From the NCBI GenBank assembly GCA_963813405.1, contig CAWEYU010000005.1, positions 28,122 through 92,121 of the forward strand: 64,000 bases of DNA, read 5' to 3'. Below, piece by piece: positions 2,126 through 63,632 of the stretch (its first letter is position 1; each line of letters opens with the position of its first letter). The stretch comes from an uncultured Bacteroidales bacterium (GTDB taxonomy: Bacteria; Bacteroidota; Bacteroidia; Bacteroidales; VadinHA17). The position numbers and the translations under genes were made by a program. A model generated the notes under the pieces. That model ran no database searches. It was not told the DNA's origin and worked only from the letters and a program-made list of their open reading frames with translations.

Positions 2126-2141
2126 ATTATTTTTGAATTTT

Positions 2142-3896: not shown

Positions 3897-4116
3897 CTGC
3901 AATTATCCTGAAAATATTGCAATAGCGACTGTCTTGTTTAATAATAGTCAATCATATAACGGTTTTCATTTTGAGAAAGGTTTTACCAAATTGAATTGCC
4001 AATAATTTCTTTTGTAACCCCAATATGCTCATTTAAAACAGATTATCTAATATCAGTTATCCGGCATCAATTTTGGATGAGAATGAAACAGATAATCAGG
4101 GTAAATAAATGTTTAA

Positions 4117-4533: not shown

Positions 4534-4565
4534 TCATCTGACGTTGTCTATACAAATCGGTTCAG

Positions 4566-6968: not shown

Positions 6969-7044
6969 ATTACTGGCAAATCCGATTATCTGAACTTTAA
7001 TTTACCAGTGAACCATTCATGTATAGAATTTTAACAAGACAGTT

Positions 7045-45010: not shown

Positions 45011-45039
45011 CTATAACTAACCTATTAAAACTATACACA

Positions 45040-45927: not shown

Positions 45928-45946
45928 TCATTACCAGGAATCAGTG

Positions 45947-46948: not shown

Positions 46949-46959
46949 AGGAAAGAGAG

Positions 46960-47577: not shown

Positions 47578-47594
47578 TAACGCGAAAATCTAAT

Positions 47595-48563
47595 ATGAAG
47601 GAAATGGATGATAGTGATAAAAGTAATTCATCGAGGCGGAACTTTCTGAAAAAGGTCGGGGTCGGAGTAGGTGCAGTAACTCTTGCCGGTGTCGCCGGTA
47701 CTTCAATGTTAAAAGGCGGTGAAGCAAAAGCGAAATCCGGTAAGATGATAAAACTTCTTTCTCCCGACGGCAAGCTTGTCGAAGTCGACCAGAATGATAT
47801 TAAGCCTGCTAAAGAGATTCTTGCAGAGCTAAAGACCGCTGCAAGGGCAGGATTGCCAAACCGGAAATTTTCTATGGTGATCGACCTTGCCAGATGCAAA
47901 AATGCAAGGAAATGTGTTGAAGCATGCCAGGAAGGACACCTTCTTCCTAAGGATCATGAATGGATGAAGCTATATCTTCTTCAGGATGATAAACATACTG
48001 CAAAGTATTGGTTTCCGAGGCCATGCTTTCATTGCGATAAACCCATGTGCGTTAGCGTATGCCCTGTCGGAGCAACCTATAAGAGACCTGACGGAATAGT
48101 ATTAATAGATAATCAACGTTGTATTGGCTGTAAGTTTTGCATGACCGGATGTCCCTTTTCAGCAAGAGTTTTCAACTGGAAAGATCCAGAAGTAAAGGTT
48201 CCTCCCGGACATGTCTATGATCCTGAGACAAATATCCCTGCTGTGGAGGGAACTGTAGGAAAATGCGTCTTTTGTGCTGACAATCTTCGTAAGAACGAGC
48301 TTCCCCGTTGCGTTACTGCCTGTCCAATGGGTGTAATCTTTTTCGGTGACATTCTTGAGGATACTGTAACCAATGGAAATGAAACAGTCAGGTTCAGCAA
48401 ACTTATGCTCGATAGGGCAGGTTACAGATATCGTGAGGAACTCGGAACTTTACCCAGTGTCTATTATCTGCCTCCTAATCAGAGAATGTTTCCGGTAGAT
48501 AGTGGCTTGGAAGGGACGGATGAGAAAATAAAAGGCAGATATAAAAATGTCGGCCCACGCTAA
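47595..48563 (+). CDS. Tat-exported 4x[Fe-S] ferredoxin subunit (NrfC/PsrB/HybA-like)
   Basis: Twin-arginine motif SRRNFLKKVGVGVGAVTLAG. Four Cys clusters (CKNARKCVEAC, CFHCDKPMCVSVCP, CIGCKFCMTGCP, CVFC...CVTACP). Confidence 0.85.
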   Translation: MKEMDDSDKSNSSRRNFLKKVGVGVGAVTLAGVAGTSMLKGGEAKAKSGKMIKLLSPDGKLVEVDQNDIKPAKEILAELKTAARAGLPNRKFSMVIDLARCKNARKCVEACQEGHLLPKDHEWMKLYLLQDDKHTAKYWFPRPCFHCDKPMCVSVCPVGATYKRPDGIVLIDNQRCIGCKFCMTGCPFSARVFNWKDPEVKVPPGHVYDPETNIPAVEGTVGKCVFCADNLRKNELPRCVTACPMGVIFFGDILEDTVTNGNETVRFSKLMLDRAGYRYREELGTLPSVYYLPPNQRMFPVDSGLEGTDEKIKGRYKNVGPR

Positions 48564-48589
48564 TATTTTCAACGTTAATCAGAAATAAA

Positions 48590-49897
48590 ATGGAAGTAGA
48601 CAATAAACTGGTCAAAGACCTGACACCCGAAATCGAGACCACAAGTTATAGATGGTATATAACCTTCTCTTTCTTTTTTCTGGTTTTCGCTGTCGGTATT
48701 TATGGACTCATTCTGCAAATTGATAAAGGGCATATTGTCACAGGTATGCGTGATAATGTTGTATGGGGCTTTTATATAGTCAACTTCATTTTCTTCATGG
48801 GACTGAGCTATTCAGGCGCCCTCATTTCAGGTGTCCTCCATCTGTTTCATACAGGCTGGAGAAAGCCGGTCATCAGGATGGCAGAACTAATTACGATAAT
48901 CTCCCTTATAATTGGTCCGTTTTTTATCTTCTTTTGTATCGGAAGACTCGACAGGCTCTATTTTCTTTTTACCCATCCCCGCATTCAGTCACCAATTACA
49001 TGGGACGTTATAGCAATATGCACAGACCTTGTTGGATGTTTTGTTTACCTGTATCTTTCATTCATTGAGGACTTTGCAATTCTGCGCGACTATGCTGACC
49101 TCAATGTGGCTCCGTGGAAAAAGAAACTTTACAAAACACTTTCACTTGGATTTACAGGAACAGAGAAACAGCATAAGATCCTGGCCAACGCAAGAACTGT
49201 AATGGCAGCCATGATCATAGCAATTGCAATTATTGTCTATTCCGTTCTGGCATGGATCTTCGGAGTTACGCTACAGCCAGGGTGGCATTCAACAATATTC
49301 GGTCCATACTTCGTTATTGCTGCGGTATTCTCGGGAACAGGTTTATTAATAATACTTATGTGGATTTTCAGGAAGATATACCATCTTGAAGAATACATTA
49401 CAAAACGCCATTTTGTTAACGTTGGAGTTTTACTTACTGTCATTGCAGCATTTTATGGTTATTTTACCTTCAGCGATTACCTGACCAAATGGTACGGATC
49501 AATAAAGATGGATTCTATATTGATCGATAAACTCTTTAATGAATACTATTCGCTGTTTATCTTTGCAAACTATATCGGAATACTTCTTCCGGGTATAATA
49601 GTAGCTTTCCCTAAATTCAGAACTATACCTAATATAACTATTGCAGCTGTTATAGCTATTCTGGCTCTCTGGGTAAACCGCTATATAATTGTTATTCCCA
49701 CACTGGAAACGCCGTTTCTGCCAATCCAGGATACACGATCCGACTGGATAACCTATTCACCAACCTGGGTTGAATGGTCCCTGACTTTTGCAGGAGTATC
49801 GGTATTCGCAATGTTGTTTATGCTGATTTCAAAAATTGCTCCTATAATTTCTATTTCAGAAATGCAGGAGAAAGACAAGAGTGAAATAATGAAGTAA
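48590..49897 (+). CDS. NrfD/PsrC-family polytopic quinone-interacting membrane subunit
   Basis: 435 aa with about 10 TM helices. Canonical position after the NrfC-like gene. N-terminal WGFYIVNFIFFMGLSYSGALIS. Confidence 0.75.
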   Translation: MEVDNKLVKDLTPEIETTSYRWYITFSFFFLVFAVGIYGLILQIDKGHIVTGMRDNVVWGFYIVNFIFFMGLSYSGALISGVLHLFHTGWRKPVIRMAELITIISLIIGPFFIFFCIGRLDRLYFLFTHPRIQSPITWDVIAICTDLVGCFVYLYLSFIEDFAILRDYADLNVAPWKKKLYKTLSLGFTGTEKQHKILANARTVMAAMIIAIAIIVYSVLAWIFGVTLQPGWHSTIFGPYFVIAAVFSGTGLLIILMWIFRKIYHLEEYITKRHFVNVGVLLTVIAAFYGYFTFSDYLTKWYGSIKMDSILIDKLFNEYYSLFIFANYIGILLPGIIVAFPKFRTIPNITIAAVIAILALWVNRYIIVIPTLETPFLPIQDTRSDWITYSPTWVEWSLTFAGVSVFAMLFMLISKIAPIISISEMQEKDKSEIMK

Positions 49898-49909
49898 CTG
49901 ATAAAGGCA

Positions 49910-50800
49910 ATGATGTTCATGAAGAAAAATATATCAAACACGACTGTTCTTTTATCAATTCTGTTTCTGTTTTCTGTACAGGCTTTTCCACAGGATAAGA
50001 CAATGATAAGTCCATCCCTGCAGCTTCAGTATTTTAAAAATACTGACGATCATAGTGTTTTGCAGACCGTACTGACTTATTCAAAAAACAGGATGGAAAT
50101 ACCGCTTGCAGGAATGGAGATCTCTTTTTATAAAGGTACAAAAAAGGAACTCCTTGGATCTGTTACAACTGATAATAAGGGAATTGCAAGGTTTGCCCTT
50201 GGCAGCGATCTGAAGCTGCCGCTTGAAAATAATGGTGCATGGACATTCAGCTCAGAGTATAAGGGTAATGATACAATCACTACCGGAAATGCCGATATCA
50301 ACATCAAAGATGTCCGACTTGAAATGACTCTTTCGCTGGCAGACAGTATTAAAACCATTTCAGTAGCTGCATTTGTAAATGAGAAGGGAAAAGATACTCC
50401 TGTATCAGGAGAAGTGGTTAAAATCTATGTGCCCAGGATGTTCAGCCTATTACCAGTCGGTGAAGTAACTCTCGATGAAAAAGGTACCGGTTCAATAGAG
50501 TTTCCTGCAGATCTTCCTGGCGATAAGGATGGCAATCTGACTATTATTTCAAAGTTTGAAGAGAATGAGAAATTCGGGAATGTAGAGAAAGATTCACAAA
50601 TCAAATGGGGGACTCCGACTGTTTATACTGAATCTTCCGCTCACAGGGCTCTCTGGACAAAAACGCCTCCACGTTGGATGATCATAACACTTTCAATTCT
50701 TCTGGTTGGTGTCTGGGGTCATTATCTTTTTGCAATTATAAGCCTTTTAAGAATAAAGATCGATGCCAGAAGGCTTGCAAAAAAGGAATACCGGGCATAG
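49910..50800 (+). CDS. secreted protein with a C-terminal TM anchor, function unknown
   Basis: Signal peptide. Ig-like beta-rich body. TM WMIITLSILLVGVWGHYLFAIISLL. Lies in the operon, 12 nt after the NrfD-like gene. Confidence 0.5.
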   Translation: MMFMKKNISNTTVLLSILFLFSVQAFPQDKTMISPSLQLQYFKNTDDHSVLQTVLTYSKNRMEIPLAGMEISFYKGTKKELLGSVTTDNKGIARFALGSDLKLPLENNGAWTFSSEYKGNDTITTGNADINIKDVRLEMTLSLADSIKTISVAAFVNEKGKDTPVSGEVVKIYVPRMFSLLPVGEVTLDEKGTGSIEFPADLPGDKDGNLTIISKFEENEKFGNVEKDSQIKWGTPTVYTESSAHRALWTKTPPRWMIITLSILLVGVWGHYLFAIISLLRIKIDARRLAKKEYRA

Positions 50801-50853
50801 AGTAAAAATTTGCACGATAATTGTATTGATAGTTTAATTAAAACCAAATTATT

Positions 50854-51249
50854 ATGAAAACTTTAAAACTTATCTTTTTAGGCTCAGCCATACTGGTATT
50901 GAGTGCTTCTCTGGTTGCACAACCCAAACCATGGGTAGTTCCTGCTAATTTCAAGTCGATGAAGAATCCGGTCGCAAAGGGCGACGCAAGCAACAAGGCA
51001 GGAATGGCTATTTATACCAAGAACTGTGCATCCTGCCACGGAAAAGCTGGTCTTGGTGACGGTGTGAAAGCAAGAGCTCTTAAAGATTTCCCGGGAGATT
51101 TTTCAAAAGCAGAATTCCAGGGACAGACAGATGGTGATCATTTCTACAAGACTAAAATGGGAAGAGGTGAAATGCCAAAGTACGAAGGAAAACTATCAGA
51201 TGACGATATCTGGAACGTTGTAAATTATATGAGAACGTTTAAGAAGTAA
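50854..51249 (+). CDS. monohaem class-I cytochrome c
   Basis: 131 aa with a signal peptide. CASCHG, a distal GRGEMPKY Met ligand and WNVVNYM. Confidence 0.85.
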   Translation: MKTLKLIFLGSAILVLSASLVAQPKPWVVPANFKSMKNPVAKGDASNKAGMAIYTKNCASCHGKAGLGDGVKARALKDFPGDFSKAEFQGQTDGDHFYKTKMGRGEMPKYEGKLSDDDIWNVVNYMRTFKK

Positions 51250-51277
51250 TCCGGGGTAAGGAAATAAATAAAAGTTA

Positions 51278-51306
51278 AGGGGCTGTTGAGACAGCCCCTT
51301 TTTTAT
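51278..51306 (+). terminator. rho-independent terminator of the cytochrome operon
   Basis: Perfect 10-bp stem aaggggctgt / acagcccctt, 4-nt loop, then a T run. Confidence 0.8.
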
Positions 51307-51364
51307 TGGGTTGAAGGCATAGCCGTCAACTTAAGAGTTGGGAATAAGAGATTGTAGTGAACAA

Positions 51365-51952
51365 TTTCCCCTCCTTTTGAAGGAGGGGTGGTCGGGAGCG
51401 ATTGATTATCTGATATATACAATATTTACTCTCCCGACCGGGGTGGTTGATTATCTTCTCAGGTCTATTCTATTTTGTTATTGAAAGCTTTCCTTTTCTC
51501 ACTCTTCAAATATTCAGGTTCCTGAAATACAAATCTGTTTGCGAATCTTAATACAGTGAATCCTAAAGTCCCCAGATGTTTATCCCTGTTTTTATCTTCT
51601 TCAATTTTATGATATGCACCATGGGGATCACCATCAAGTTCGATAATTAGTTTTTCAGAAGGACAACAGAAGTCGACAATGTTATTTCCAATACAGTATT
51701 GTCTTCTGAATTTTCTTCCATAAAGCTTTTTTGATTTTAACATCTCCCACAAAGCAACTTCAGCTGAAGTAGATCTGTTCCTGAGAGATGCTCTGAAAGA
51801 CTTAAGGACCTTTCTATTGAAGAGGTTTTTGTTTTTCATTGATATAAAGGTAATAAGAAAGAATGAAATCAACCACCCCGGCCGGGGATAAAGTCTTGTA
51901 AATACCAGAGAATCAAGGGTCCCGGCCACCCCTCCTTGAAAAGGAGGGGAAA
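51365..51952 (-). mobile_element. intact DUF559-endonuclease cassette with imperfect terminal inverted repeats of about 88 bp
   Basis: The left end tttcccctccttttgaaggaggggtggtcggg...cccgaccggggtggttgatt and the reverse complement of the right end tttcccctccttttcaaggaggggtggccggg...ccccggccggggtggttgatt align at about 80%. A single ORF lies between them. Confidence 0.7.
51465..51839 (-). CDS. DUF559 / Vsr-like endonuclease-domain protein
   Basis: 124 aa from MKNKNLFNRK. Motif FRRQYCIGNNIVDFCCPSEKLIIELDG...D...R...L...GFTVLRF, typical of DUF559. The 30-aa N-terminal extension in the track is read-through of the inverted repeat. Confidence 0.8.
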   Translation of the reverse strand: MKNKNLFNRKVLKSFRASLRNRSTSAEVALWEMLKSKKLYGRKFRRQYCIGNNIVDFCCPSEKLIIELDGDPHGAYHKIEEDKNRDKHLGTLGFTVLRFANRFVFQEPEYLKSEKRKAFNNKIE

Positions 51953-52068
51953 CTATTTGTATTATGCTTCTCTTAAGTTAACAGCTTTGGGGTTGGAGGG
52001 TCCCGAAAGCTTTCGGGATAGCGGTAGATCATAAAAAAGGAGCATTTGAGACAGCCCCTTTTTTTATA

Positions 52069-52109
52069 AAACAAACCCCCGTTACGCAAATAGCCTACCG
52101 GGGGTTTTT
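52069..52109. terminator. GC hairpin with flanking T/A runs (terminator for the minus-strand haem lipoprotein gene; bidirectional shape)
   Basis: cccccg (52076-52081) pairs with cggggg (52099-52104). T5 lies on the plus side, and tttgtttt on the minus side. Confidence 0.5.
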
Positions 52110-52130
52110 ATTATTTATGCTTTAATCCTG

Positions 52131-53510
52131 TTAGGATGCAGGAGGTATAGCTGCCAATGAATTTGTCAGCAATGTTCTTACATATTTTGTATTGTGAATA
52201 CCCAGACTATATTCCCTTAAGCAAAGCTGGAAATTAATTATAGCTCCGAACTGTGCATTTGTCATAACAAGTTTTGGGAGAGTGAGGTTAAAAGCTGTCT
52301 GTGCGGCATTCCAGCTTGTACTTGGAGAAGGGTTTTGGAACACCTTGGCATTCTGAACAGTTCCCAGCGGATTAGTTGCCGGATCGTAAATATTCAGATA
52401 ACCATCATAGTTATTGTTGGTCAGCCCGGCCCATAAATTAACACTGGCTTGTACATCCTCCTGTTGATTGTCAAAATTATAATCTACGTTGACAAAAAAG
52501 TTCTCGTTGGAATTCGGATTTCTGTTCAGAACTTCAACTCCGCCAATGGTAAGTTTTGCTGCAAGCTGATTCAGTAAGCCTTTGATCTCATCCCTTGTTG
52601 CTTTCCAGTAAGCTGTGGTTGTGGAAGATGAGATCGGACCATTATGCGCAGCATCATTGTGACAACCTACCACGTTACAGCCTGTAAAGTTGCCTTTAGC
52701 AAAGAAAGTATGTCCACCTGTTCTCCCTGTAAGTGGAGACATGTGACAATCTTCGCACGATGCAACAGTTGCATGCTGGGAGTTGGTATAACCTGTACCA
52801 AATTCAACACCGCCTTTACCGGCAACAATTGCTCCTACTGTACCATAGTGTGTATGGGTTCTGTAGCTTGGTCTTATTGTGTTAACGTTTGCTGTTGAAG
52901 TAGGATTGTTACCGTCAAAGAAAGTGATAGTTGGGGAACTGACTAAAGCTGTATAGTCAATAACATTCTTATCACCGAATGTTCTGGTAAACGGACGTGG
53001 CTGGTGACATTTCACGCATAAATTACTTTTTCCGCCATCCTGTGTAAGGTCAATTGTTTTTAAACCACCATTAAAAGTCATCGGAACAGCTGCAGTGGTT
53101 GTCAGCGGCATCCAGTCAGCATCGGTATAAGTGGTATGTAAATTGTCGTGACACATAGTGCAACGTAATTCCCCATATCCCTTATTTGCAGCTGTTGAAT
53201 AGGGATTGCTGTAAGTTGTTCCTGAAAGTACAAATGCAACTGGTACATTTCTCTTAACTACATCTTTAAATCCCTCCGATGTATGACAGGGAGCGCAACC
53301 TGTACTGCCTGATTCTCCGAATGCGGCCTCACCATATTTATGTTTTGATAATTCAAACATGGTAAAGACAGAATCGACACCTGCTGAATTATGACAAAGT
53401 TTGCAGCTCTCATTTGCATCTTTCCCAGCCGGACCCATTGGTCCCTCACATGAGGTAAACAGAAATCCCGCAACTGTAAAAAGTGATAATAGTCTGATTA
53501 AGTTCTTCAT
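52131..53510 (-). CDS. multihaem c-type cytochrome lipoprotein (5 CXXCH plus one CX4CH)
   Basis: The internal ATG at 53510 gives a lipoprotein signal MKNLIRLLSLFTVAGFLFTSC. Haem motifs: CKLCH, CAPCH, CTMCH, CVKCH, CEDCH, plus CNVVGCH. The C-terminal half of about 170 aa has no haem motif. Confidence 0.8.
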   Translation of the reverse strand: MKNLIRLLSLFTVAGFLFTSCEGPMGPAGKDANESCKLCHNSAGVDSVFTMFELSKHKYGEAAFGESGSTGCAPCHTSEGFKDVVKRNVPVAFVLSGTTYSNPYSTAANKGYGELRCTMCHDNLHTTYTDADWMPLTTTAAVPMTFNGGLKTIDLTQDGGKSNLCVKCHQPRPFTRTFGDKNVIDYTALVSSPTITFFDGNNPTSTANVNTIRPSYRTHTHYGTVGAIVAGKGGVEFGTGYTNSQHATVASCEDCHMSPLTGRTGGHTFFAKGNFTGCNVVGCHNDAAHNGPISSSTTTAYWKATRDEIKGLLNQLAAKLTIGGVEVLNRNPNSNENFFVNVDYNFDNQQEDVQASVNLWAGLTNNNYDGYLNIYDPATNPLGTVQNAKVFQNPSPSTSWNAAQTAFNLTLPKLVMTNAQFGAIINFQLCLREYSLGIHNTKYVRTLLTNSLAAIPPAS

Positions 53511-53660
53511 AGTTTGTTGTTTTTGGTACAGATTATTGGTTATTAATGTTATAAATTTCACAATCATTTCGCCATGCAATGTACAAATTGGTTCTGTTAA
53601 TTGATAAACAGGTTTGCTGATATTTGCAATACGCTAAATTGATACATATGACCCATAAAG

Positions 53661-53674
53661 TTGATATTTATCAA
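53661..53674. promoter_or_regulatory. perfect FNR/CRP-family box TTGAT-ATTT-ATCAA
   Basis: An exact 14-bp palindrome in the divergent intergenic region between the haem lipoprotein gene and the Crp/Fnr regulator gene. Confidence 0.6.
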
Positions 53675-53723
53675 TATAGATTATGATATATATTAGGATT
53701 TCGTAACTTGCAACCCTAAAAAC

Positions 53724-53731
53724 TATTTTTG
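53724..53731 (+). promoter_or_regulatory. Bacteroidota -7 promoter motif (TAnnTTTG) for the Crp/Fnr gene
   Basis: TATTTTTG lies 21 nt upstream of ATG 53752. Confidence 0.4.
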
Positions 53732-53751
53732 ACACCCTCTAATATCAGGCT

Positions 53752-54447
53752 ATGTTTAGTGAAAAGCTGGTTAACAATTGTGAAAATTGCATTGTCTCGT
53801 GGAAGAATTTTAAAAATCTATCGCAAAGCGAGATAAGACTGGTCAACGAAAACAGGTATGAAGCTACTTTTAAACCCGGTGAAATAATTCTTAAACAGGG
53901 ATCTCCTGCTTCAAACGCAGTTTTTCTGGCGTCAGGTATGGCAAAGGTATATATAGAAGGCCTTGATGGTAAGAGCTTTATTTTAGGAATTGCATTACCC
54001 TCTCAGATTTTAATAGGTCCTGGCGTTCATGTTCATACCCGGCTTTCATATTCAGTTTCTGCACTGACTGTTGTTCAGGCATGTTTCATAAGTTTTGATA
54101 TTATGAACCAGATGATAAGACAAAATGCAGATTTTGCTTATGGAATGATTGAGGACCTCAGCACTAAATCTTACGTCATTCACAATAAGCTTGTAAGCCT
54201 TACCCAAAAAAAGATGCCTGGCAGACTGGCAGAGGCAATTCTTTTTTTTGCGGAAGAAGTATATAAATCTGATGAATTCAATATGATCTTATCAAGGAAA
54301 GAACTTGGTGAGATGACTAATATGGCAAAAGAGAGTGTTGTCAGAATATTGAAAGAGCTCGAATCGGCTGGTGTCATAAATGCCAGTTGTTCAAAAATTC
54401 AGATACTCGACAGGGAAAAGCTGAGGCTGATCTCTGAGCGAGGCTGA
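53752..54447 (+). CDS. Crp/Fnr-family transcriptional regulator
   Basis: 231 aa. N-terminal CENC pair, a cNMP-binding-like beta-roll, and a C-terminal HTH (RKELGEMTNMAKESVVRILKELE). Confidence 0.85.
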   Translation: MFSEKLVNNCENCIVSWKNFKNLSQSEIRLVNENRYEATFKPGEIILKQGSPASNAVFLASGMAKVYIEGLDGKSFILGIALPSQILIGPGVHVHTRLSYSVSALTVVQACFISFDIMNQMIRQNADFAYGMIEDLSTKSYVIHNKLVSLTQKKMPGRLAEAILFFAEEVYKSDEFNMILSRKELGEMTNMAKESVVRILKELESAGVINASCSKIQILDREKLRLISERG

Positions 54448-54513
54448 TGGCAGAAGGCTGAAGACTGAAGGTGGACTTCGGACAATTTAAAATTATAAAA
54501 ACTAAGTATTATT

Positions 54514-57282
54514 ATGAAGTATTTAAAATTCCTTTTAAGTCCCGTTTTTATGGGAATATTGTTTGTGCTATTTGCCCTTTCAATGGCCGTTGCCACATTT
54601 ATAGAAAATGATTTTGGTTCTGCTGCTGCTTACAGTTTTGTTTATGATACAAAATGGTTTGAATTTATTCTTTTGTTGCTTGTAGTAAATCTGACAGGAC
54701 AGATACTTGAATATAAATTATATAGAAAGGCAAAACTTACGGTTTTCTTGTTCCATGCAGCATTTATTATTATGATAATCGGTGCCGGTATTACAAGATA
54801 TTTTGGTTATGAAGGTTCGATTCACATACGGGAAGGAAAAGAGGAAAACAAATGCTTCTCGACCGCAAAATATATAGGATATTCCATAAAGGATGAACAG
54901 GGAAATCTGTTGGCGGAGAACTCAAGGAAATACACTCTCACATCAAAGACTGCAGATAACTACAGTAGCAGTATAAATGCAGGTGGTGAAAAATATGAAA
55001 TAGTATTGAACAGTATCATACCGAATGCCGCTAAATCAGTTTCTGCCGATAGTGTTGAATCGGCAGTTGGTATTAATCCATCAGAACATGAAACCGGAGA
55101 AAATGCATTTATTTTCTCCCTGTCTGTAGGTGGGAAAACCATAAAAACTACTCTTTGGGACAAAGAAAACCAGAACACGGCAACAAACTATATAAACCTG
55201 AATGGTAAAAGCGTTGAGCTGTTTTATGGTTCAAAAGTTACAGCTCTTCCTTATAGTATCAGACTTAATAAGTTCATGCTTGAAAGATATCCCGGATCCA
55301 ATAGCCCATCCGGCTATAAGAGCGATGTAGTCCTAATTGATAAGGCTGCAAATACGGAAAAACCATTTATGATCTTTATGAATAATATTTTGAAATATAA
55401 AGGATACCGCTTTTATCAGTCATCTTTCGATCAGGATGAACTGGGGACAATTCTTTCTGTAAATCATGATAATGCAGGAATGCTGGTAAGTTATTCGGGT
55501 TATGCTATTCTCTTCCTTTTCATTATACTTTCGATTATCAACAAAAACTCGGTATTCCATAATGTAAATGCCGGTTACTGGAATTCTCCTTTCAGAAAGA
55601 CAATATCTGTTTTGATACTTCTGGTTTTCCTTGGCGGATTCAGTACTTTAAACGCTCAGAAACTTGTCCCGGATAAAAAAGCGGCTGAAGAGTTTGGGAA
55701 AGTGCTTGTTCAGGATCAGAAAGGAAGAACCAAACCTCTGTTTACTCTAAGTAATGATATACTCAGAAAAGTGACAAGAGAAAATGAATTTGAGGGGATG
55801 AATTCCATGCAGGTATTCCTTGGTTTATACTTTGATTTTACTGACTGGAAAAGTATACCTCTTATCAGGGTCTCAAATAAGGACATACAGAATACAATAG
55901 GTATCACTGGTAGCATGGCCTCATTTGACGATCTGGTTAACCTTGGCAGCGGAGGAAAATATAAACTCGCAGATGATGTTGCAAAGGCTTATGGAAAGGC
56001 GCCCGGCGAACGAAATAAATTTGACAAGGAGGTAATGAAGGTTGATGAAAGAGTTAACATCGTATATATGATCTATTCCGGAGAATTTATGAAGCTTTTT
56101 CCTCTTAAAAACAACACTCATAACTGGGGTACTTCTGAAGAAGCCATTAAGACAGCTATCAGCAAAGACGATTCCCTCTATCTGACATCTATTTTGCCTA
56201 TGTTTGCTGAAGCCCTGAACAACAAGAACATATCTTCTGCAAGTCAAATAGCCGGTTCGATCACCGATTACCAGAACAGGTTTGCAGGCTATACCCTTCC
56301 TTCAAAATCAAAGACAAATGCAGAAATTCTCTATTATAAAGCAAAGATATTTGAACGCCTGTTCCCGATTTATGCAACAATAGGGTTGGTCATGCTTATT
56401 GGTCTGCTGATAATGGTCATCAGTGGCAGGAAGAAGGGATCCCTGTTTGTCAAAGCGCTTGGGTGGCTGCTTTTTGCAGGATTCCTGTTTCATACGGCTG
56501 GCCTCGGACTGAGATGGTATATAGCCGGTCATTCACCAATGAGCAATGGTTATGAATCTATGATCTTTATTTCGTGGGTGACTCTTCTTGCAGGTTTTAT
56601 TTTCAGCCGTAAATCGGCATTTGCACTCTCGGCTACAGCTGTACTGGCTTCTATGACACTTATGGTTGCCCACCTTAGTTTTATGGATCCCGAGATCACA
56701 AACCTGGTACCTGTCCTTAAATCTTACTGGCTTACTCTCCATGTTTCTGTAATTACCGGAAGCTACGGATTCCTTGGGCTGGGAGCAATACTGGGATTAA
56801 TTACCATGATCCTTCTTGCTCTCTCAAACAGCAAAAACTATGAAAGGATTGGCGCAACAATTGATGAGCTGACGGTAATAAATTATAAGACTCTGACCCT
56901 TGGTCTTTATTTTCTGACAATTGGAACATTTCTTGGAGCTGTATGGGCCAATGAATCGTGGGGTCGTTACTGGGGCTGGGATCCCAAGGAGACATGGTCG
57001 CTGATTACGGTAATTATTTATAGTCTTGTTATTCATTCAAGACAGATTCCTTCATTGAAAGACGTTTACTCTTTTAACATTCTGTCTCTCTTCGCATTTT
57101 CGTGTGTGCTGATGACATACTTTGGTGTAAACTATTACCTGTCAGGTCTTCATTCATATGCATCGGGAGATCCTGTTCCGGTGCCATCCTTTGTTTATAT
57201 AACGGTGATTTTACTTGCAGCATTGTCACTGGTTGCAAACCGTAAATATAATATCTGGAAAAAGGCAGCAGGGGGAATGTAG
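54514..57282 (+). CDS. ccsBA: fused system-II cytochrome c biogenesis protein CcsBA (ResB-like plus CcsA)
   Basis: 922 aa. A ResB-like N-terminal half with a large periplasmic loop. A CcsA half with the WWD motif WGRYWGWDPKETW and conserved TM His residues. Confidence 0.85.
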   Translation: MKYLKFLLSPVFMGILFVLFALSMAVATFIENDFGSAAAYSFVYDTKWFEFILLLLVVNLTGQILEYKLYRKAKLTVFLFHAAFIIMIIGAGITRYFGYEGSIHIREGKEENKCFSTAKYIGYSIKDEQGNLLAENSRKYTLTSKTADNYSSSINAGGEKYEIVLNSIIPNAAKSVSADSVESAVGINPSEHETGENAFIFSLSVGGKTIKTTLWDKENQNTATNYINLNGKSVELFYGSKVTALPYSIRLNKFMLERYPGSNSPSGYKSDVVLIDKAANTEKPFMIFMNNILKYKGYRFYQSSFDQDELGTILSVNHDNAGMLVSYSGYAILFLFIILSIINKNSVFHNVNAGYWNSPFRKTISVLILLVFLGGFSTLNAQKLVPDKKAAEEFGKVLVQDQKGRTKPLFTLSNDILRKVTRENEFEGMNSMQVFLGLYFDFTDWKSIPLIRVSNKDIQNTIGITGSMASFDDLVNLGSGGKYKLADDVAKAYGKAPGERNKFDKEVMKVDERVNIVYMIYSGEFMKLFPLKNNTHNWGTSEEAIKTAISKDDSLYLTSILPMFAEALNNKNISSASQIAGSITDYQNRFAGYTLPSKSKTNAEILYYKAKIFERLFPIYATIGLVMLIGLLIMVISGRKKGSLFVKALGWLLFAGFLFHTAGLGLRWYIAGHSPMSNGYESMIFISWVTLLAGFIFSRKSAFALSATAVLASMTLMVAHLSFMDPEITNLVPVLKSYWLTLHVSVITGSYGFLGLGAILGLITMILLALSNSKNYERIGATIDELTVINYKTLTLGLYFLTIGTFLGAVWANESWGRYWGWDPKETWSLITVIIYSLVIHSRQIPSLKDVYSFNILSLFAFSCVLMTYFGVNYYLSGLHSYASGDPVPVPSFVYITVILLAALSLVANRKYNIWKKAAGGM

Positions 57283-57313: not shown

Positions 57314-57643
57314 GGTGGAAGATGGCAATCCCCCCCTGTTTTCAGTCACCAAATAATCGTCCGATTATTTGGTAGTATTCTTCCGAATTACCTTTTAATA
57401 AAATTAGCAAAACTAATTTAATATTGAGGTCTTCATTCCAATACAAGACATGTTACTATTATAAATCATCATTATATACTTAAATATGTGTGATTTATGT
57501 AATATTTTCAGGTAATTGTGTAATGTTTACCACAACTGAAAAATTTACCTTTACTCTGCGAAAATTTCATCTTAACTGAAAACTATTGGTAATCAGTTAA
57601 ATACAAGGGTCTTCAATTGCACAAGACTTAATCGAAAATCGAT

Positions 57644-60376
57644 ATGAATAAAAGTGTAAGGTCGGATTTGTTGACCATTGCTGAGAAAGAAAAAGCAAAA
57701 CGTGAAAAGGAATTGGTTATTGCTAATGCAGAACTTGCAGCGGAATTGGTCATTGCTGATGGAGAGAAAGCTGAACGTGCTGCAGAGTTAGTCATTGCTG
57801 ATGAAGAAAAAGCAAAGCGTGAAAAGGAATTAGTTATTGCTAACGTAGAGAAAGCTGAACGTGCTGCAGAGTTAGTCATTGCTGAGGAAGAGAAAGCAGA
57901 ACGTGAAGCAGAGTTAGTCATTGCTGAGGAAGAGAAAGCAAAACGTGAAGCAGAGTTAGTCATTGCTGAGGAAGAGAAAGCAAAACGTGAAGCAGAGTTA
58001 GTCATTGCTGAGGAAGAGAAAGCAAAACGTGAAGCAGAGTTAGTCATTGCTGAGGAAGAGAAAGCAAAACGTGAAGCAGAGTTAGTCGTTGCGAACGAAG
58101 AGAAAGCAAAGCGTGCTTCAGAGTTAGTTATTGCCAACGCGGAGAAAACAAAACGTGCTGCAGAATTAGTTATTGCGAACTCAGAGAGAGCAAAACGTGC
58201 TGCAGCGTTAGTTATTGCGAACTTTGAGAAAGAAAAACGTGCAGATGAATTAATCATCGCTGACAAGGAACTTGTCTTTCAAAACGAAGAAAAGGTAAAA
58301 CGTGCAGCAGAGTTTGTCATCGCTGATGTAATTAATACAAAACGTGCAGCAGAGTTAGTCATTGCCAAGATTGAGAAAGCAAAACGGATAGCAAAGTCAA
58401 TCAATGCCGACAAAGAACTTTCTTTTCAAACAGAAGAAAAATCAAAACGGGCAGCAGAGTTAGTCATTGCTGACGCAGAGAAAGCAAAACGTGAAGCTGA
58501 GTTAGTCATTGCGAATATTAAGCAAGCCAAACGTTCCGCTGAGTTAGTCATTGCGAACGTAGAGAAAGCAAAACGTTCTGCAGAGTTAGTCATTGCAAAC
58601 AAAGAACTTGTTTATCAAAAAAGCGAAAAATCAAAACGTGCTGCAGAGTTAATCATTGCGAACGTAGACAAAGCAAAACGTTCTGCAGAGTTAGTGATTG
58701 CGAATATAGAGAAAGCAAAACGTGCTGCGGAGTTAGTCATGGTGAATAAAGACCTCGTGCTGGCGAAAGAGAAGGCAAAACACACAACAGAGTTAATTAT
58801 TATTAACAAAAAACTTAACCTTCAAATTGAAAAGAACCTTCAAACTGACCAAGCACTGAAGGAAAGTAATGAGAAGTATTTAGAGGCTTTCAAGTCAGCA
58901 CCATATTCAATCACTATAGTGAGAATTACAGATGGAAAGTTTATAGAAGTTAACGATGTTTTTATATCAATTTCAGGTTTCACCAGAGAAGAGGCATTAA
59001 ACAATTCAACGGTTGGACTTGACATATGGGTAGATAAAGAAGAACGAAATTGGGTAATCTCATCCCTTCTTGATGGCAGGGATGTAATGGGGAAAGAATT
59101 CCTGTTCAAAAAAAAGAATGGGGAAATCATTACGGGTTTGTTTTCCGCAAAAATCATTAAACTCAATAACGAACTATGCATTATATCCAGTATCAATGAC
59201 ATCACAATGATGAAGCATACTGAATCAGAATTAATTAAAGCCAAAAATAAGGCTGAAGAAAGCGACAGGTTGAAATCCGCATTCCTTACTAACATGAGTC
59301 ATGAAATACGCACTCCCATGAATGGCATTCTTGGTTTTGCGGAACTTTTAAAAGAACCTAACTTAACAATTGATGAACAACAAGATTATATACAGACGAT
59401 GCAGATTAGTGGAGCCCGTATGCTCAGTACCATCAACAGTATTGTTGATATGTCTAAAATTGAATCAGGACTTATAAGAATTGACATTAAGGAAACGAAT
59501 CTTAACGAGAAGATTGAATTTACTTATAAGTTCTTCAAACCAGAAGTTGAGATTAAAGGATTGCAGTTTTTATTTAAAAATGGTTTGCCATCAAAGGAAG
59601 CCATCATTAAAACAGACAATGAAAAAGTCTATGGAATACTGACTAATCTTGTTAGAAATGCCATTAAGTTTACTTATGAAGGTTCAATTGAATTTGGCTA
59701 TGAGAAAAAGGGGGAATACCTTGAATTCTTTGTAAAAGACACAGGCATAGGTATTCCAGGGAATCAGAAGGAACTAATTTTTGAGAGATTCAGGCAGGGT
59801 AGTGAATCACATGACCGAAGTTATGAAGGCAGTGGCTTGGGTTTATCCATTTCGAAATCCTATGTAGAAATGCTTGGTGGCAGGATATGGGTGGAAAGTG
59901 AAGAAGGGAAAGGTTCAACATTTTATTTTACCATTCCTTACATTTCTGTATCAGAAGAAAAAGTCACAATCGAAAATGTTGTTTCCGCAGAGAATAAAGA
60001 AGTTCAGTTAAATAACCTGAAAATATTGATTGTCGAAGACGATGAAATTTCATATTCACTGCTCTCAAGAACGATTCAGAAAATCAGTAAAGAAGTATTA
60101 CATGCAATAACTGGTGTTGAAGCAGTTGAGGTTTGTCGTAATAACCCAGACCTTGATTTGGTATTAATGGACATTAGAATGCCCAAAATGGATGGACATG
60201 AAGCCACACGTCAAATCCGTCAATTCAATAAAGAAGTAATCATAATTGCACAAACAGCCTATGCCTTTGCTGGTGACAGCGAAAAGGCGTTGGAAGCGGG
60301 ATGCAATGATTATATTTCTAAACCCATTAACAAGACGTTATTGTACGATTTAATAAAAAAGTATGTTAATAAATAG
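57644..60376 (+). CDS. hybrid sensor histidine kinase with a repeat-built N-terminus of about 390 aa (repeats, PAS, HisKA, HATPase_c, REC)
   Basis: PAS (SAPYSITIVRITDGKFIEVND). H-box LTNMSHEIRTPMNGILGF. G-box GSGLGLSISKSYVEMLGG. Receiver ILIVEDDEIS...LVLMDIRMPKMDG. No TM segment is seen. Confidence 0.85.
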   Translation: MNKSVRSDLLTIAEKEKAKREKELVIANAELAAELVIADGEKAERAAELVIADEEKAKREKELVIANVEKAERAAELVIAEEEKAEREAELVIAEEEKAKREAELVIAEEEKAKREAELVIAEEEKAKREAELVIAEEEKAKREAELVVANEEKAKRASELVIANAEKTKRAAELVIANSERAKRAAALVIANFEKEKRADELIIADKELVFQNEEKVKRAAEFVIADVINTKRAAELVIAKIEKAKRIAKSINADKELSFQTEEKSKRAAELVIADAEKAKREAELVIANIKQAKRSAELVIANVEKAKRSAELVIANKELVYQKSEKSKRAAELIIANVDKAKRSAELVIANIEKAKRAAELVMVNKDLVLAKEKAKHTTELIIINKKLNLQIEKNLQTDQALKESNEKYLEAFKSAPYSITIVRITDGKFIEVNDVFISISGFTREEALNNSTVGLDIWVDKEERNWVISSLLDGRDVMGKEFLFKKKNGEIITGLFSAKIIKLNNELCIISSINDITMMKHTESELIKAKNKAEESDRLKSAFLTNMSHEIRTPMNGILGFAELLKEPNLTIDEQQDYIQTMQISGARMLSTINSIVDMSKIESGLIRIDIKETNLNEKIEFTYKFFKPEVEIKGLQFLFKNGLPSKEAIIKTDNEKVYGILTNLVRNAIKFTYEGSIEFGYEKKGEYLEFFVKDTGIGIPGNQKELIFERFRQGSESHDRSYEGSGLGLSISKSYVEMLGGRIWVESEEGKGSTFYFTIPYISVSEEKVTIENVVSAENKEVQLNNLKILIVEDDEISYSLLSRTIQKISKEVLHAITGVEAVEVCRNNPDLDLVLMDIRMPKMDGHEATRQIRQFNKEVIIIAQTAYAFAGDSEKALEAGCNDYISKPINKTLLYDLIKKYVNK
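57671..58840 (+). repeat. in-frame array of about 27 units of a 14-residue (42-bp) repeat, ELVIA-x2-EKAKR-x-A
   Basis: Units 57908-58075 are four perfect 42-bp copies (gcagagttagtcattgctgaggaagagaaagcaaaacgtgaa). A fifth copy (57866-57907) differs by 1 nt. The remaining units are diverged. Three units are 21 aa (inserting KEL-x-[FY]Q-x). Confidence 0.9.
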
Positions 60377-60379
60377 AAA

Positions 60380-62767
60380 ATGGATTCTATAGATAAGACC
60401 AAAGAAGAACTAATAAAAGAGTTACACAAATTGCATGAGAAGTATGATTTATTAAAAACATCATATTCAAAAGACATTATCAGACACAAGCAGACAGAAC
60501 AAACACTTATAAAATGTGAGAACAATTTAAAAGAAAGAATTAGAGAACTAATAGGTATTTATTCACTTGGAAATTTAGCAGAAGAATTTACCAGACTTGA
60601 AGATATTTACTATGCATTTGTAAATAATGTTGTACCCGAAAGTTTGCAGTTTCCTGAAAAAGTTTTTGTTTCGCTTGAAATTGATAGAAAAAAATATAAC
60701 AATATTGAAAACTTCAAACTGTCAGAAAGCCAAAAATATTTATCTGCACCGATTAAAATATATGGTAAGCAAACAGGAGAATTAATCGTGTCTTACATAA
60801 AAGATTTACCATTTATTGATTTTCTTGACCAGAACCTTATAAACAGCTATGCAAAAAGGATATCAAAAATTACTGAGCGCATTAAAACAAAACAAACCCT
60901 TGAGGAAAGTGAATCTTCATTACGGGATGCTCAGGAAATTGCAAAGATGGGTAATTGGGAACTTGATTTAATTAATCAAAAGGTAAAATGGTCAGAAAAT
61001 TGTTATGTCCTTTATGGCTTAAAACCGTTTGAAATTGAACCCACTTTCGAATATTTCAAAAGCAGAATACACCCTGATGATTTGCATTTGGTTGATGACG
61101 CTATTAAAAATATTATAAGGTACAAAATACCACATACTTCTGAATTGCGAATAATCTTTCCTGATGGAACAATTAGATGGTTTCAGAACGACATGATTCT
61201 AATTTTTCAAGGTGATAAACCTGTTGCAATAAAAGGAATTAATCTCGATATCACGGAGCGCAAACAAGCTGCGATGAATTTAGCAGAATCAAATCTATTT
61301 TATTTACAAATTATTAATAGTTTAGATGAAGGAGTCATTGTTTATGACCCTAATTTGCAATATAAAGTATGGAATCATTTTATGGAAGAGTTGTCAGGGA
61401 TTCCCGCAAAACAAGTTTTAGGTAAATATCCCACTGAGGTATTTCCTTTCTTAGAAGAGGTAGGTGTAATTAAAAACCTTAAATGCGTATTAAATGGTGA
61501 GAATATTGATGCTCTTGATTTTCCTTTTCATATGCCCCTATCTGGAAAATCTGGTTGGAGTTCAGATAAAAATATGTCCGTTCGAAATATGAATGGAGAA
61601 ATTATTGGGGTCATTGGAACTGTTCATGATATCACTGAACGCAAGAACTGGGAAGAACGCCTGAAGAGTATTAATGAACGGTTCTTCCTTGCAACTACTG
61701 CTGCTTCTATCAGTGTCTGGGAGCATGATTTTATTACAGATATGATTCAAATAGATGATAATTTTAATAAGATATATGGTAATACTCAGGGTAAATATCA
61801 AATCGAATTCAACGAATTTATCAAATTTATTTACCCTGATGATGTTGATATTATTAAAACAAATATTGAAGAAGCAATAAAATCGGATAAAAACATGAAT
61901 TTTGAATTCAGAATTATTAAACCTGATGGCAATATCAGAAATATCAGTGCTTATGGTAAAATAGTAAAAGATAAAACTAATAAACCTATAAAGTTTATTG
62001 GTGTAAATATGGATATATCTGATTTTAAGAAAGCCGAACTCAAAATGAAAGAAAATGAAAGAAAATTACTCCAACTAAATACCGACAAAGACCGCTTTAT
62101 ATCAATTCTCGGACACGATTTAAGCAGTCCATTCAATAACTTGCTTGGTCTATCAGAAGTCTTGATAGAAGACATACACAAACTCAATAAAGACGAAATT
62201 GAAGATATCGCAAAGGATATTAATGAATCTGCACATCGCTCTTTTGATTTATTGGAAGATTTATTGAAGTGGGCAAGAGCACAGCAAGGCAATATACTTT
62301 TCAAACCACAAATATTAAGTTTTAGAGATATTTGTCTGAATGTGGTTGATATTCTTAAACCGAATGCCTATGCAAAAAACATCACAATCAATTATTCCAC
62401 ACCAGGGGATTTAAATGTTTTTGCTGATATTGATATGTTAAAAACGGTATTAAGAAACCTTGTTTCGAATGCAATTAAATTTACAAACAAAGGCGGAGCA
62501 ATAAATATTAATGCTGAAGAAAATTTTGAAAATGTAACTATTTCGGTTTCGGACAATGGAATAGGAATAGCACCTGATGATTTAAAGAAACTGTTTGATA
62601 TGTCAGAAGTTATTACAACAAAAGGTACGGCAGAAGAAACAGGAACAGGTCTGGGATTATTGCTTTGTAAAGAATTTGTGGAAAGACATGGTGGTAAAAT
62701 TTGGGTAGAGAGTGAAGTAGGTAAAGGGAGTGATTTTAAATTTACTTTGCCAATATCTGTAGAATAA
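60380..62767 (+). CDS. cytoplasmic multi-PAS sensor histidine kinase
   Basis: Starts 3 nt after the upstream stop. It has several PAS/PAC-like blocks (e.g. IRWFQNDMILIF, DITERK occurring twice), an H-box ISILGHDLSSPFNNL and a G-box GTGLGLLLCKEFVERHGG. Confidence 0.8.
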   Translation: MDSIDKTKEELIKELHKLHEKYDLLKTSYSKDIIRHKQTEQTLIKCENNLKERIRELIGIYSLGNLAEEFTRLEDIYYAFVNNVVPESLQFPEKVFVSLEIDRKKYNNIENFKLSESQKYLSAPIKIYGKQTGELIVSYIKDLPFIDFLDQNLINSYAKRISKITERIKTKQTLEESESSLRDAQEIAKMGNWELDLINQKVKWSENCYVLYGLKPFEIEPTFEYFKSRIHPDDLHLVDDAIKNIIRYKIPHTSELRIIFPDGTIRWFQNDMILIFQGDKPVAIKGINLDITERKQAAMNLAESNLFYLQIINSLDEGVIVYDPNLQYKVWNHFMEELSGIPAKQVLGKYPTEVFPFLEEVGVIKNLKCVLNGENIDALDFPFHMPLSGKSGWSSDKNMSVRNMNGEIIGVIGTVHDITERKNWEERLKSINERFFLATTAASISVWEHDFITDMIQIDDNFNKIYGNTQGKYQIEFNEFIKFIYPDDVDIIKTNIEEAIKSDKNMNFEFRIIKPDGNIRNISAYGKIVKDKTNKPIKFIGVNMDISDFKKAELKMKENERKLLQLNTDKDRFISILGHDLSSPFNNLLGLSEVLIEDIHKLNKDEIEDIAKDINESAHRSFDLLEDLLKWARAQQGNILFKPQILSFRDICLNVVDILKPNAYAKNITINYSTPGDLNVFADIDMLKTVLRNLVSNAIKFTNKGGAININAEENFENVTISVSDNGIGIAPDDLKKLFDMSEVITTKGTAEETGTGLGLLLCKEFVERHGGKIWVESEVGKGSDFKFTLPISVE

Positions 62768-62813: not shown

Positions 62814-63269
62814 TTGGATATATGGTCATTGTTTTGGTATACGTTTATCAGAATACAATTTTCAATAAAAGATTATCCTTTGAGTAAAAATCAACAAATA
62901 ATATCACCCTCTAAGAACACGCCAGAGGTCATTCTTGAACCGAAAGGGACTATTAAATTTACAGGTCGGTTAATTCCTGAAAATGCCGAGGACTTCTTTA
63001 ATCCAATAGAGGAATGGATAGATGAATATTTTTGTAATCCTGCTGAAATTACCTGCGTTGAAATTTGTCTTGAATATATTAACAGTGTCGGTACTAAGTA
63101 TTTACTTGACTTAATTCATAAAATTACACATAGTCATCTCAAGAAAAATAATGACAAGTTCATAATTAACTGGTACTACAAAGATGAAGATGAAGATATA
63201 CTCGAAAAAGGGAATTTTTTTTCTTCATACTTAGACGTACCCTTTAACTTTATCAGGATAATCAGATAA
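62814..63269 (+). CDS. SiaC-like (DUF1987) regulatory protein
   Basis: The core TPEVILEPKGTIKFTGRLIPENAEDFFNPIEEWIDEY matches my memory of DUF1987. The track start is TTG 62814, which sits inside a TAAATTTG -7 motif (62809-62816). An in-frame TTG at 62880 (MSKNQQIISPSKNTPEV...) is a more plausible start. Confidence 0.55.
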   Translation: MDIWSLFWYTFIRIQFSIKDYPLSKNQQIISPSKNTPEVILEPKGTIKFTGRLIPENAEDFFNPIEEWIDEYFCNPAEITCVEICLEYINSVGTKYLLDLIHKITHSHLKKNNDKFIINWYYKDEDEDILEKGNFFSSYLDVPFNFIRIIR

Positions 63270-63554: not shown

Positions 63555-63632
63555 TGGGGTGGAAGATGGGGCTCGAACCCACGACCTTCGGAACCACAAT
63601 CCGACGTTCTAACCGACTGAACTACATCCACC
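63555..63632 (-). tRNA. tRNA-His (anticodon GTG) with genomically encoded G-1 and CCA
   Basis: Hand-folded cloverleaf on the minus strand. Acceptor GTGGATG/CTTCCAC (one U-U mismatch). D arm GTTC-AGTCGGTTA-GAAC. Anticodon arm TCGGA-TTGTGGT-TCCGA. T arm GTGGG-TTCGAGC-CCCAT. Discriminator C, then CCA. An extra 5-prime G pairs with C73. Confidence 0.85.

Follow-up and report, generated by a model that had tools for sequence, protein, structure and literature searches.

The stretch of DNA analyzed here, which we refer to as the window, comprises 64,000 nucleotides from an uncultured Bacteroidales bacterium of the VadinHA17 lineage (assembly GCA_963813405.1, contig CAWEYU010000005.1, positions 28,122 to 92,121 of the forward strand). 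It encodes a hybrid histidine kinase that starts with a long array of short, reiterated sequence units, followed by PAS, HisKA, HATPase_c and receiver (REC) domains. The array keeps a heptad register, is predicted to be helical, changes length by whole units between close relatives and recurs on many other signaling proteins. Here, we will describe this array and its relatives, and weigh the possibility that it forms a long coiled-coil rod.

The open reading frame (ORF) of the kinase begins at the first start codon (ATG) past the preceding stop, which leaves no room for a hidden sensor or membrane anchor in front of it. A first inspection of this DNA, made from the letters alone (the sequence-only reading), had reported no transmembrane segment, and none was found: the top 19-residue Kyte–Doolittle mean over the whole protein is 1.09. 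With an H-box histidine, a HATPase_c domain and a C-terminal receiver, the protein is a hybrid sensor histidine kinase of the HisKA family, with Pfam scores of 71.6 bits for HisKA, 96.7 bits for HATPase_c and 85.1 bits for Response_reg. Matches to TorS/LuxQ/BarA-like models in NCBIfam stay under the equivalog cut-offs, pointing to generic hybrid-kinase similarity only. A Pfam scan of residues 1–412 gave no match over threshold, and an exact look-up of the protein returned no database record. The array itself (395 residues) contains no proline and a single glycine, alongside 86 acidic and 81 basic residues.

Parsing of the array gives 26 units, rather than the roughly 27 counted earlier: 20 of 14 residues, three of 21, one of 11, one of 20 and a degenerate last one. 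The 14-residue consensus is ELVIAN-x-EKAKRAA, to which the 21-residue units add KEL-x-[FY]Q-x. That the repeat preserves heptads was borne out by this parse, in which the 11-residue unit is a stutter and the sole break of heptad phase ahead of residue 362, leaving 47 heptads without interruption over residues 34–362, while the 20-residue unit is conserved in orthologues. Tandem Repeats Finder likewise recovered the proposed 42-bp period (11.7 copies with 85% matches at 57728–58218, and further period-42 blocks up to 58753), together with higher-order periods of 147 and 189 bp. In the proximal array (58145–58740) these longer periods match, at the protein level, super-units of 21-14-14 and 21-14-14-14 residues; the aromatic-containing 21-mers thus return every 7 or 9 heptads, a pattern kept in the orthologues. 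Four units are identical at the DNA level and a fifth (57869–57910) differs by 1 nt, as had been noted; the identical copies lie at 57911–58078, and the position given before, 57908–58075, reads 3 nt out of phase. The expanded unit (57869–58078) carries Glu at position 6, where the family consensus is Asn/Asp, and at position 13, where it is Ala. This stretch is more acidic than the remaining array, and similar units occur in the small array kinases P0031 and P0110. The positions of these features are collected in Table 1; within the 64-kb window, no second copy of the array was found.

Table 1. Features of the kinase gene, its array and its surroundings, in positions of the window unless another locus is named.
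Feature	Position	Strand	Remarks
Hybrid histidine kinase gene	57644..60376	+	910 aa + stop; array, PAS, HisKA, HATPase_c, REC
Repeat array	57668..58852	+	Residues 9-403, 26 units
Distal half of array, units 0-12	57668..58204	+	Unit count and sequence vary among orthologues
PAS-proximal half of array, 13 units	58205..58852	+	Pattern 14, 21-14-14, 21-14-14-14, 21-14-14, 20, last
11-residue unit ELVIANAELAA	57710..57742	+	Stutter, minus 3 residues
Exact 42-bp periodicity tract	57900..58087	+	188 bp; units encode ELVIAEEEKA[KE]REA
Three 21-aa units	58247-58309, 58394-58456, 58583-58645	+	From the unit parse
20-aa unit	58730-58789	+	Also kept in orthologues
PAS domain	58895..59206	+	Residues 418-521 (Pfam); predicted array helix enters its N-cap
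HisKA (DHp) domain	59273..59470	+	Residues 544-609 (Pfam); H-box NMSHEIRTP
HATPase_c catalytic domain	59615..59941	+	Residues 658-766 (Pfam)
Receiver (REC) domain	60023..60355	+	Residues 794-904 (Pfam)
Antisense ORF, 212 aa, SARFAFSSSAMTN repeats	57628..58266	-	Stop-free mirror of the repeat, not a gene
Downstream PAS-PAS-HisKA-HATPase kinase (non-hybrid)	60380..62767	+	4 bp after the array kinase; without array
Recurring gene group (array kinase, second kinase, SiaC-family in two loci)	Window 60380-62767 and 62814-63269; L001 8108-9909; L003 8522-10102; L002 7748-10468; L005 7584-8594
Respiratory-looking cluster	44636-57282		Upstream of the kinase
tRNA gene	63558-63631	-	Rfam RF00005, 65.6 bits; downstream of the SiaC-like gene

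On the opposite strand, an antisense ORF covers part of the array, which the sequence-only reading had dismissed as a by-product of the repeat. We agree, and rule it out as a real gene: it is limited to the repeat, similar antisense ORFs overlap the arrays at three orthologous loci (L002, L004 and L008), and the sense frame continues into well-supported domains.

The hydrophobicity of the window array oscillates with a power of 195 at a period of 7.0 residues and 183 at 3.5, compared with 7 at 3.6 and about 5 at 3.67. Periods of 7.0 and 3.5 are taken as the mark of supercoiled, not straight amphipathic, helices. An amphipathic membrane-binding helix built on 11-mers was considered as well and ruled out (power 4.6 at period 3.67 versus 183 at 3.5). 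The array shows the 3.5-residue hydrophobic periodicity of parallel coiled coils in a sequence without helix breakers, and across 120 relatives 97% of the spacings between anchor residues are divisible by 7. Structure prediction agrees with a helix, as had been proposed. When AlphaFold was given an alignment of 22 sequences, it returned a model with a mean predicted local distance difference test (pLDDT) score of 76.7, in which fragment residues 79–231 (protein residues 266–418) form one unbroken helix that runs into the PAS N-cap, with pLDDT climbing to about 90.

A candidate register can be read from the variability of the units. Comparison of 525 distinct 21-mers shows low conservation at positions 3, 7, 10, 14, 17 and 21, a 4-3-4-3 stripe that we take as the exposed b and f positions. 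This would place Leu2, Leu9 and Lys16 at a, Ala5, Gln12 and Arg19 at d, Glu1, Glu8 and Glu15 at g, Asn6, Asn13 and Ala20 at e, and Ile4, Phe11 and Lys18 at c. The 14-mer equals the 21-mer minus the heptad KELAFQN, so that the putative core changes from a = Leu, Leu, Lys and d = Ala, Gln, Arg in the 21-mer to a = Leu, Lys and d = Ala, Arg in the 14-mer. Conservation across units is high for both hydrophobic and polar positions: Leu2 (98–99%), Ile4 (73–79%), Leu9 (98%) and a near-invariant Ala5 are accompanied by Asn6, Gln12, Asn13, Glu15, Lys16 and Arg19, which reach 81–99% conservation over hundreds of different units taken from many architectures. The Glu at g and the Asn at e that lies five residues further on (i to i+5; E1–N6 and E8–N13) are conserved together. 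Such pairs would suit the g–e′ geometry of a parallel dimer; an antiparallel arrangement would face Glu with Glu.

The abundance of charge raises another option, namely that the array is a single α-helix (SAH), which is stable as a monomer, forms no coiled coil and serves simply to project or space the N-terminus. Its 86 acidic and 81 basic residues, the lack of proline and the many Glu–Lys/Arg pairs at i to i+3 or i+4 within the units are in keeping with an SAH, as are the weak a/d core of the 14-mers and the especially acidic, SAH-like expanded unit. Against this stand the near-invariant Leu2, Ile4, Ala5 and Leu9, as an SAH has no conserved hydrophobic positions, and the sharp periodicity of 3.5 rather than 3.6 residues. 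Furthermore, nothing lies N-terminal of the array that would need spacing, and an SAH needs no phase, whereas the array keeps a fixed heptad phase with the dimeric DHp (HisKA) domain and with the PAS N-cap. We consider an SAH quite unlikely.

This phase becomes visible when the distance from the last anchor of the array to its neighboring domain is measured. To the phospho-accepting histidine, the distance is 17, 24, 38 or 45 residues, with a remainder of 3 after division by 7 in 20 of 32 cases. To the 'ESE' motif of the PAS N-cap it is 11, 18, 25 or 39 residues, with a remainder of 4 in 12 of 13 cases among relatives. The closest folds to the PAS model are YF1 (4GCZ), PpSB1-LOV and FixL PAS dimers. 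The N-cap helices of these dimers lie on the dimer axis.

Comparison with orthologues shows that the two halves of the array behave differently. The 13 PAS-proximal units are kept one for one in L002, L003, L004, L031, P0001 and P0002, all from metagenome-assembled genomes of uncultured Bacteroidales, including the 21-14-14(-14) super-pattern and the 20-residue unit, and they are conserved across species at 60–80% identity. The distal part varies from 2 to about 15 units. A PAS marker residue accordingly falls at position 441, 378, 364, 266, 364 or 336 in these six orthologues, always divisible by 7. The window kinase has it at residue 403, with a remainder of 4, exactly the shift that the lineage-specific 11-residue unit (a 3-residue stutter) would give. 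The recent expansion and copy-number variation suspected earlier were confirmed by these differences, by the perfect tracts that L002 (116 bp) and L008 (147 bp) carry in their own distal halves, next to the 188 bp of the window, and by whole-unit differences between otherwise identical proteins. In one 90%-identity cluster of LuxR-array-HD-GYP proteins (P0012, P0264, P0265 and P0266), the arrays measure 149, 205, 219 and 233 residues, in 14-residue steps, while the flanks are identical over 65 of 65 and 205 of 205 residues. The members of a second such cluster, with a REC-LuxR-array architecture (P0108, P0267, P0268, P0269 and P0270), differ only in array length, in steps of 35 residues (14+21). 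Whole-unit variation of this kind argues against hairpins, which would need paired indels, and against a ruler of fixed length. The latter idea, put forward by the sequence-only reading, is hard to reconcile with such variation and is disfavored.

Length variation of this kind is also what a largely neutral minisatellite would produce, that is, an in-frame, heptad-compatible 42-bp repeat that slips or recombines at a tolerant N-terminus, with perfect copies that are partly an assembly artefact and a length that serves no function. The perfect tracts in the window, L002 and L008 all lie in the distal half, copy number varies between otherwise identical proteins, and the 188-bp perfect repeat is longer than common short-read k-mers, so its copy number may be mis-assembled. 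Still, a neutral repeat would not account for the one-for-one conservation of the 13 proximal units between species, nor for the maintenance of Asn6, Gln12, Asn13, Glu15, Lys16 and Arg19 across architectures, nor for the survival of heptad phase through indels in nearly all anchor spacings. In addition, conserved residues use different synonymous codons: over 17 distinct 14-mer units, Ala5 is encoded by GCT (8), GCG (7) and GCC (2), and codon differences at the six most conserved positions number 181 synonymous versus 108 non-synonymous. The array is a protein-level feature, not merely a DNA satellite, and we regard the neutral explanation as improbable.

Arrays of this type are widespread. 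A search with the first 412 residues, in which 8000 candidates were scored, found at least 4498 proteins that carry arrays, and an exhaustive scan of 1.84 billion representatives at 50% identity gave 1164, 573 and 120 proteins at E ≤ 1e-3, 1e-10 and 1e-30, respectively. The relatives bear long arrays of the 21-residue unit ELIIANKELAFQNEEKEKRAA, of the 14-residue form, or of fixed mixes such as 14+21. Named sources are mainly Bacteroidota (Flavobacterium, Chryseolinea, Salinivirgaceae, Kapaibacterium, Lutibacter and Gelidibacter), plus at least one betaproteobacterial protein (Glaciimonas). The arrays stand before HisKA/HATPase, GGDEF, GGDEF-EAL, HD-GYP or SpoIIE domains, between LuxR and HD-GYP, after REC-LuxR, or beside PAS. 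Among 272 of the best matches, the span by a uniform measure has a median of about 200 residues and a maximum of 440, and 112 arrays start within the first 40 residues of the protein. The earlier impression that an array of this size is unusual holds in so far as the window array ranks 7th of 280 by span; long arrays are typical of the family, however, and the window array is long but not exceptional. Some members consist of little else: P0023, P0110 and P0033 are orphan genes for array, HisKA and HATPase only, P0077 is array, GGDEF and EAL, and P0019 is array and SpoIIE. At the P0110 and P0033 loci, there is no adjacent second array gene.

Neither Pfam nor NCBIfam has a model for the array unit. 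DUF7556 (PF24433) reaches 30.4 bits (cut-off 27) on the window array alone (57644–58879), matching only 29 residues. PH_SLA1 (PF24081) scores 26–35 bits on the pure 21-mer arrays of P0009, P0023, P0030 and P0077, above its 27-bit cut-off in P0009, P0030 and P0077, and no single stretch passes by itself. These matches look like repeat-driven or compositional false positives, and to our knowledge neither family has a known function relevant to the array.

One and the same unit, down to its invariant polar residues, decorates proteins with HisKA/HATPase, GGDEF, EAL, HD-GYP, SpoIIE and LuxR/REC modules, which could mean that arrays act as a shared velcro, associating with one another across proteins and gathering kinases, cyclic di-GMP enzymes, phosphatases and LuxR regulators in one cluster or signalosome. 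The conserved Ile4 and Phe11, which would sit at c and outside a simple dimer core, are in keeping with this. Array-like helices also occur in both genes of the L005 kinase pair, and the small array-only kinases share a sample series with P0001. Yet the window holds only one array, with none in the downstream partner kinase, and arrays of differing unit order (14, 21 or mixed) would pair out of register. Such hetero-association is, in our view, unlikely.

The interpretation that we favor, with moderate confidence, is that two copies of the array pair, parallel and in register, as a homodimeric coiled-coil rod of tunable length, which would be marginally stable and act as a dimerization or input module. 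The single very long coiled coil predicted by the sequence-only reading is a reasonable candidate structure in this light. The first roughly 400 residues, made of the reiterated three-heptad unit and its two-heptad deletion form, would constitute one long, mostly uninterrupted α-helix paired with that of a second subunit, reaching about 55–60 nm if fully extended. As a continuation of the PAS N-cap helix that keeps a fixed heptad phase with it, the rod would draw the two N-caps together like a zipper. This would bias the geometry of the dimer from PAS to DHp, and hence the balance between kinase and phosphatase activity. A core that is only half hydrophobic, flanked by invariant Glu at g, would make for a marginal zipper whose strength scales with the number of units; marginal stability of this kind would speak for a tunable dimerization/input module rather than a passive spacer. 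Single-unit indels fit parallel in-register pairing, as they are automatically matched in a homodimer. In relatives without other upstream parts, the array would be the only regulatory element, and a response to temperature, ionic strength or pH is a plausible speculation. The stronger version of this idea makes the array an autonomous input device, with zipping set by temperature, ionic strength, pH or crowding, or by pairing with the arrays of other proteins, and with slippage as a rapid means for populations to retune the set-points of kinases, cyclic di-GMP enzymes and phosphatases. We consider this unlikely; if true, it would explain both the family members without another sensor and the copy-number differences between otherwise identical proteins.

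Several observations weigh against the homodimeric rod. Its core would be unusually polar, with Leu, Ala, Lys and Arg at the a/d positions of the 14-mer, and a stable two-stranded coil is not guaranteed. Two conserved hydrophobic residues, Ile4 and Phe11, would occupy c positions, which do not belong to a simple dimer core; this hints at a wider interface or a partner. In the expanded unit ELVIAEEEKAKREA, Glu at positions 6 and 13 would bring Glu opposite Glu at g–e′. The phase counts given above come from small samples (n = 32 for the histidine and n = 13 for the PAS N-cap) of query-related matches. The array of P0108 lies near the C-terminus, behind a REC-LuxR module, which shows that arrays are not always the input to a downstream enzyme. 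Lastly, the AlphaFold model made with the alignment has a helix break at protein residues 257–265, where pLDDT is below 50, and the single-sequence model of the whole protein is unusable (pLDDT 39.8), with helices broken at residues 47–53, 147–181, 260–263 and 324–327.

Such breaks in the monomer models, together with the width of the conserved face (a, c, d, e and g) and the CheB-CheR fusion gene that adjoins the P0001 orthologue, could be read as signs of a folded-back antiparallel bundle, in which the chain folds into chemoreceptor- or spectrin-like helical hairpins to give a shorter, thicker module. However, pLDDT at the breaks is below 50, and long helices tend to be folded back on themselves in monomer models. 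Single-unit indels at arbitrary places would shift a hairpin, and chemoreceptors reportedly change length by symmetric heptad pairs, as described by Alexander and Zhulin in 2007. All-Glu g positions would disfavor antiparallel g–g′ contacts, no Gly/Pro turn motif is present (the whole array has its one Gly), and by inspection the units contain no chemoreceptor methylation consensus. We judge a bundle very unlikely, and continue with the parallel homodimeric rod as the preferred reading.

The surroundings of the kinase gene (Table 1) were considered as a clue to its signal. The second kinase directly downstream is kept in L001, L002, L003, L005 and L031, with a remnant in L004, and in the window and L001 it is followed by a gene for a SiaC-family phosphoprotein. 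The second kinase of L005 carries a short, degenerate array of its own, ahead of the DHp domain. Conserved gene context was nevertheless dropped as a clue, as the other neighbors differ at every orthologous locus. The upstream cluster in the window encodes a DUF5777 β-barrel, multihaem cytochromes c, a 4Fe-4S protein, an NrfD-like membrane subunit, a Crp/Fnr regulator and a 922-residue ResB-CcsA fusion for cytochrome c maturation; it is probably unrelated to the array kinase and adjacent by coincidence. In L001, a CheB-CheR fusion gene and a PAS_10 gene (1963–4592) lie just upstream of the P0001 orthologue and were not seen in the window or at the other orthologous loci. With this context present in one locus only, and with units that on inspection lack the consensus [ASTG]2-x2-[EQ]2-x2-[ASTG]2, a chemoreceptor-like methylation helix was ruled out. 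In the same locus, gene calling breaks the P0001 orthologue into three pieces (array-PAS-HisKA, HATPase_c and REC; 5124–8104), a split that probably stems from frameshift errors in the assembly.

The array touches on an open question, namely how cytoplasmic signaling enzymes without a recognizable sensor domain are controlled. Its repeat is found on hundreds of protein families in Bacteroidota, before every major bacterial output domain, and is often the sole non-catalytic part. It looks like an experiment of nature, in which the helix that carries signals from PAS domains to kinases and cyclases has been lengthened. The whole-unit length changes between close relatives make for a tractable system in which to relate coiled-coil length and stability to signaling output, and the arrays could serve as ready-made parts for engineered sensors. 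At a more practical level, a dedicated array profile would correct the spurious PH_SLA1 and DUF7556 labels.

We finally compare the array with the closest known systems, beginning with the signaling helix, or S-helix. Each S-helix comprises one module of about 40 residues (five heptads), with an ERT signature at c-d-e of the central heptad and an Asn at an a position 10 residues before the Arg. It is found immediately ahead of DHp, GGDEF and PP2C domains, or linking one PAS domain to the next (Anantharaman, Balaji and Aravind 2006, PMC1592074). The arrays resemble it in placement, as they abut DHp, GGDEF, HD-GYP, SpoIIE and PAS domains with conserved phase to the histidine and the PAS N-cap, and in being heptad helices with polar core residues and an Arg at the presumed d position followed by x-x-Glu(g)-Leu(a)-x3-Asn-x-Glu-Leu. 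The spacing R-x3-L-x3-N-x-E-L is shared, in register, by the array unit and the S-helix/DHp neck. When 784 array 42-mers were compared by hhalign with 34 ERT helices (a set drawn from related kinases), the alignment had a probability of 77% and P = 2e-5, and covered 21 columns in the C-terminal half only, aligned exactly at the Arg. Natural chimeras of ERT and array units exist, such as ERTRDLERLNLELQFQNGEKEK.

There are also differences. The S-helix is one segment, while in the array a 14- or 21-residue unit is reiterated from 8 to more than 25 times (395 residues and 26 units in the window, up to 440 residues in the family), with KRA in place of ERT: the Arg is kept in 96% of units, at the presumed d position, whereas Glu is replaced by Lys in 84% and Thr by Ala in 90%, apart from some chimeric units with ERT. 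The position of the S-helix Asn at a is occupied by Leu9 (98%), and the conserved Asn of the array would be at e. The upstream half is mismatched, and the array often has no upstream sensor. By sequence, the unit looks like a relative of the C-terminal half of the S-helix/DHp neck, but it departs from the S-helix in several of its defining features. The sequence-only reading had allowed that the motif might map to a characterized domain; it does so in part, in register with this described element. The literature that could be searched, about 8 million papers, holds no relevant paper for the literal motif strings (one match is an unrelated Leishmania vaccine paper), and a concept-level search yielded the S-helix paper and general papers on coiled-coil linkers, but nothing else of relevance. 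The family is widespread and unnamed, related to the S-helix and, as far as the literature searched goes, apparently undescribed.

Poly-HAMP arrays of the Aer2 type and the heptad-length classes of chemoreceptor cytoplasmic domains are also concatenated helical signaling modules that change length by whole structural units. These are four-helix bundles or hairpins with symmetric-pair indels, in contrast to the array units, which comprise two to three heptads of a single helix with single indels; Pfam scans gave no match to HAMP or to the MCP signal domain. The Ala clusters of tropomyosin and Salmonella TlpA provide examples of long two-stranded coils in which Ala or charged core positions alternate with Leu and stability is marginal and condition-dependent, so that the coil serves as a flexible rod or a thermosensor. 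They have no sequence relationship to the array, for which a sensing role is speculation.

Structural counterparts are also found at the two ends of the PAS-kinase module. At array-kinase junctions, the canonical DHp neck fills the exact slot of the next ELIIANKELAFQ unit. Necks of the same type are found in solved bacteriophytochrome kinase chains (8UPH, 9YS3 and 8F71), where the stretch ER-x-S/T-x-L-x3-N-x-E-L-x2-F ahead of the H-box can be aligned to the last unit of an array without loss of heptad phase. These solved necks are one unit long and relay the signal from an upstream photosensor, whereas the reiterated unit occurs in no solved structure; a PDB sequence search with the array gave two chance matches only, to designed repeat proteins (E = 0.08 and 0.28). 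At the other end, the array helix is predicted to run in fixed phase into the PAS N-cap, much like the N-cap (A′α) coiled coils of PAS/LOV dimers. The latter are 10–25 residues long, and in the window kinase the N-cap would be lengthened by about 400 residues.

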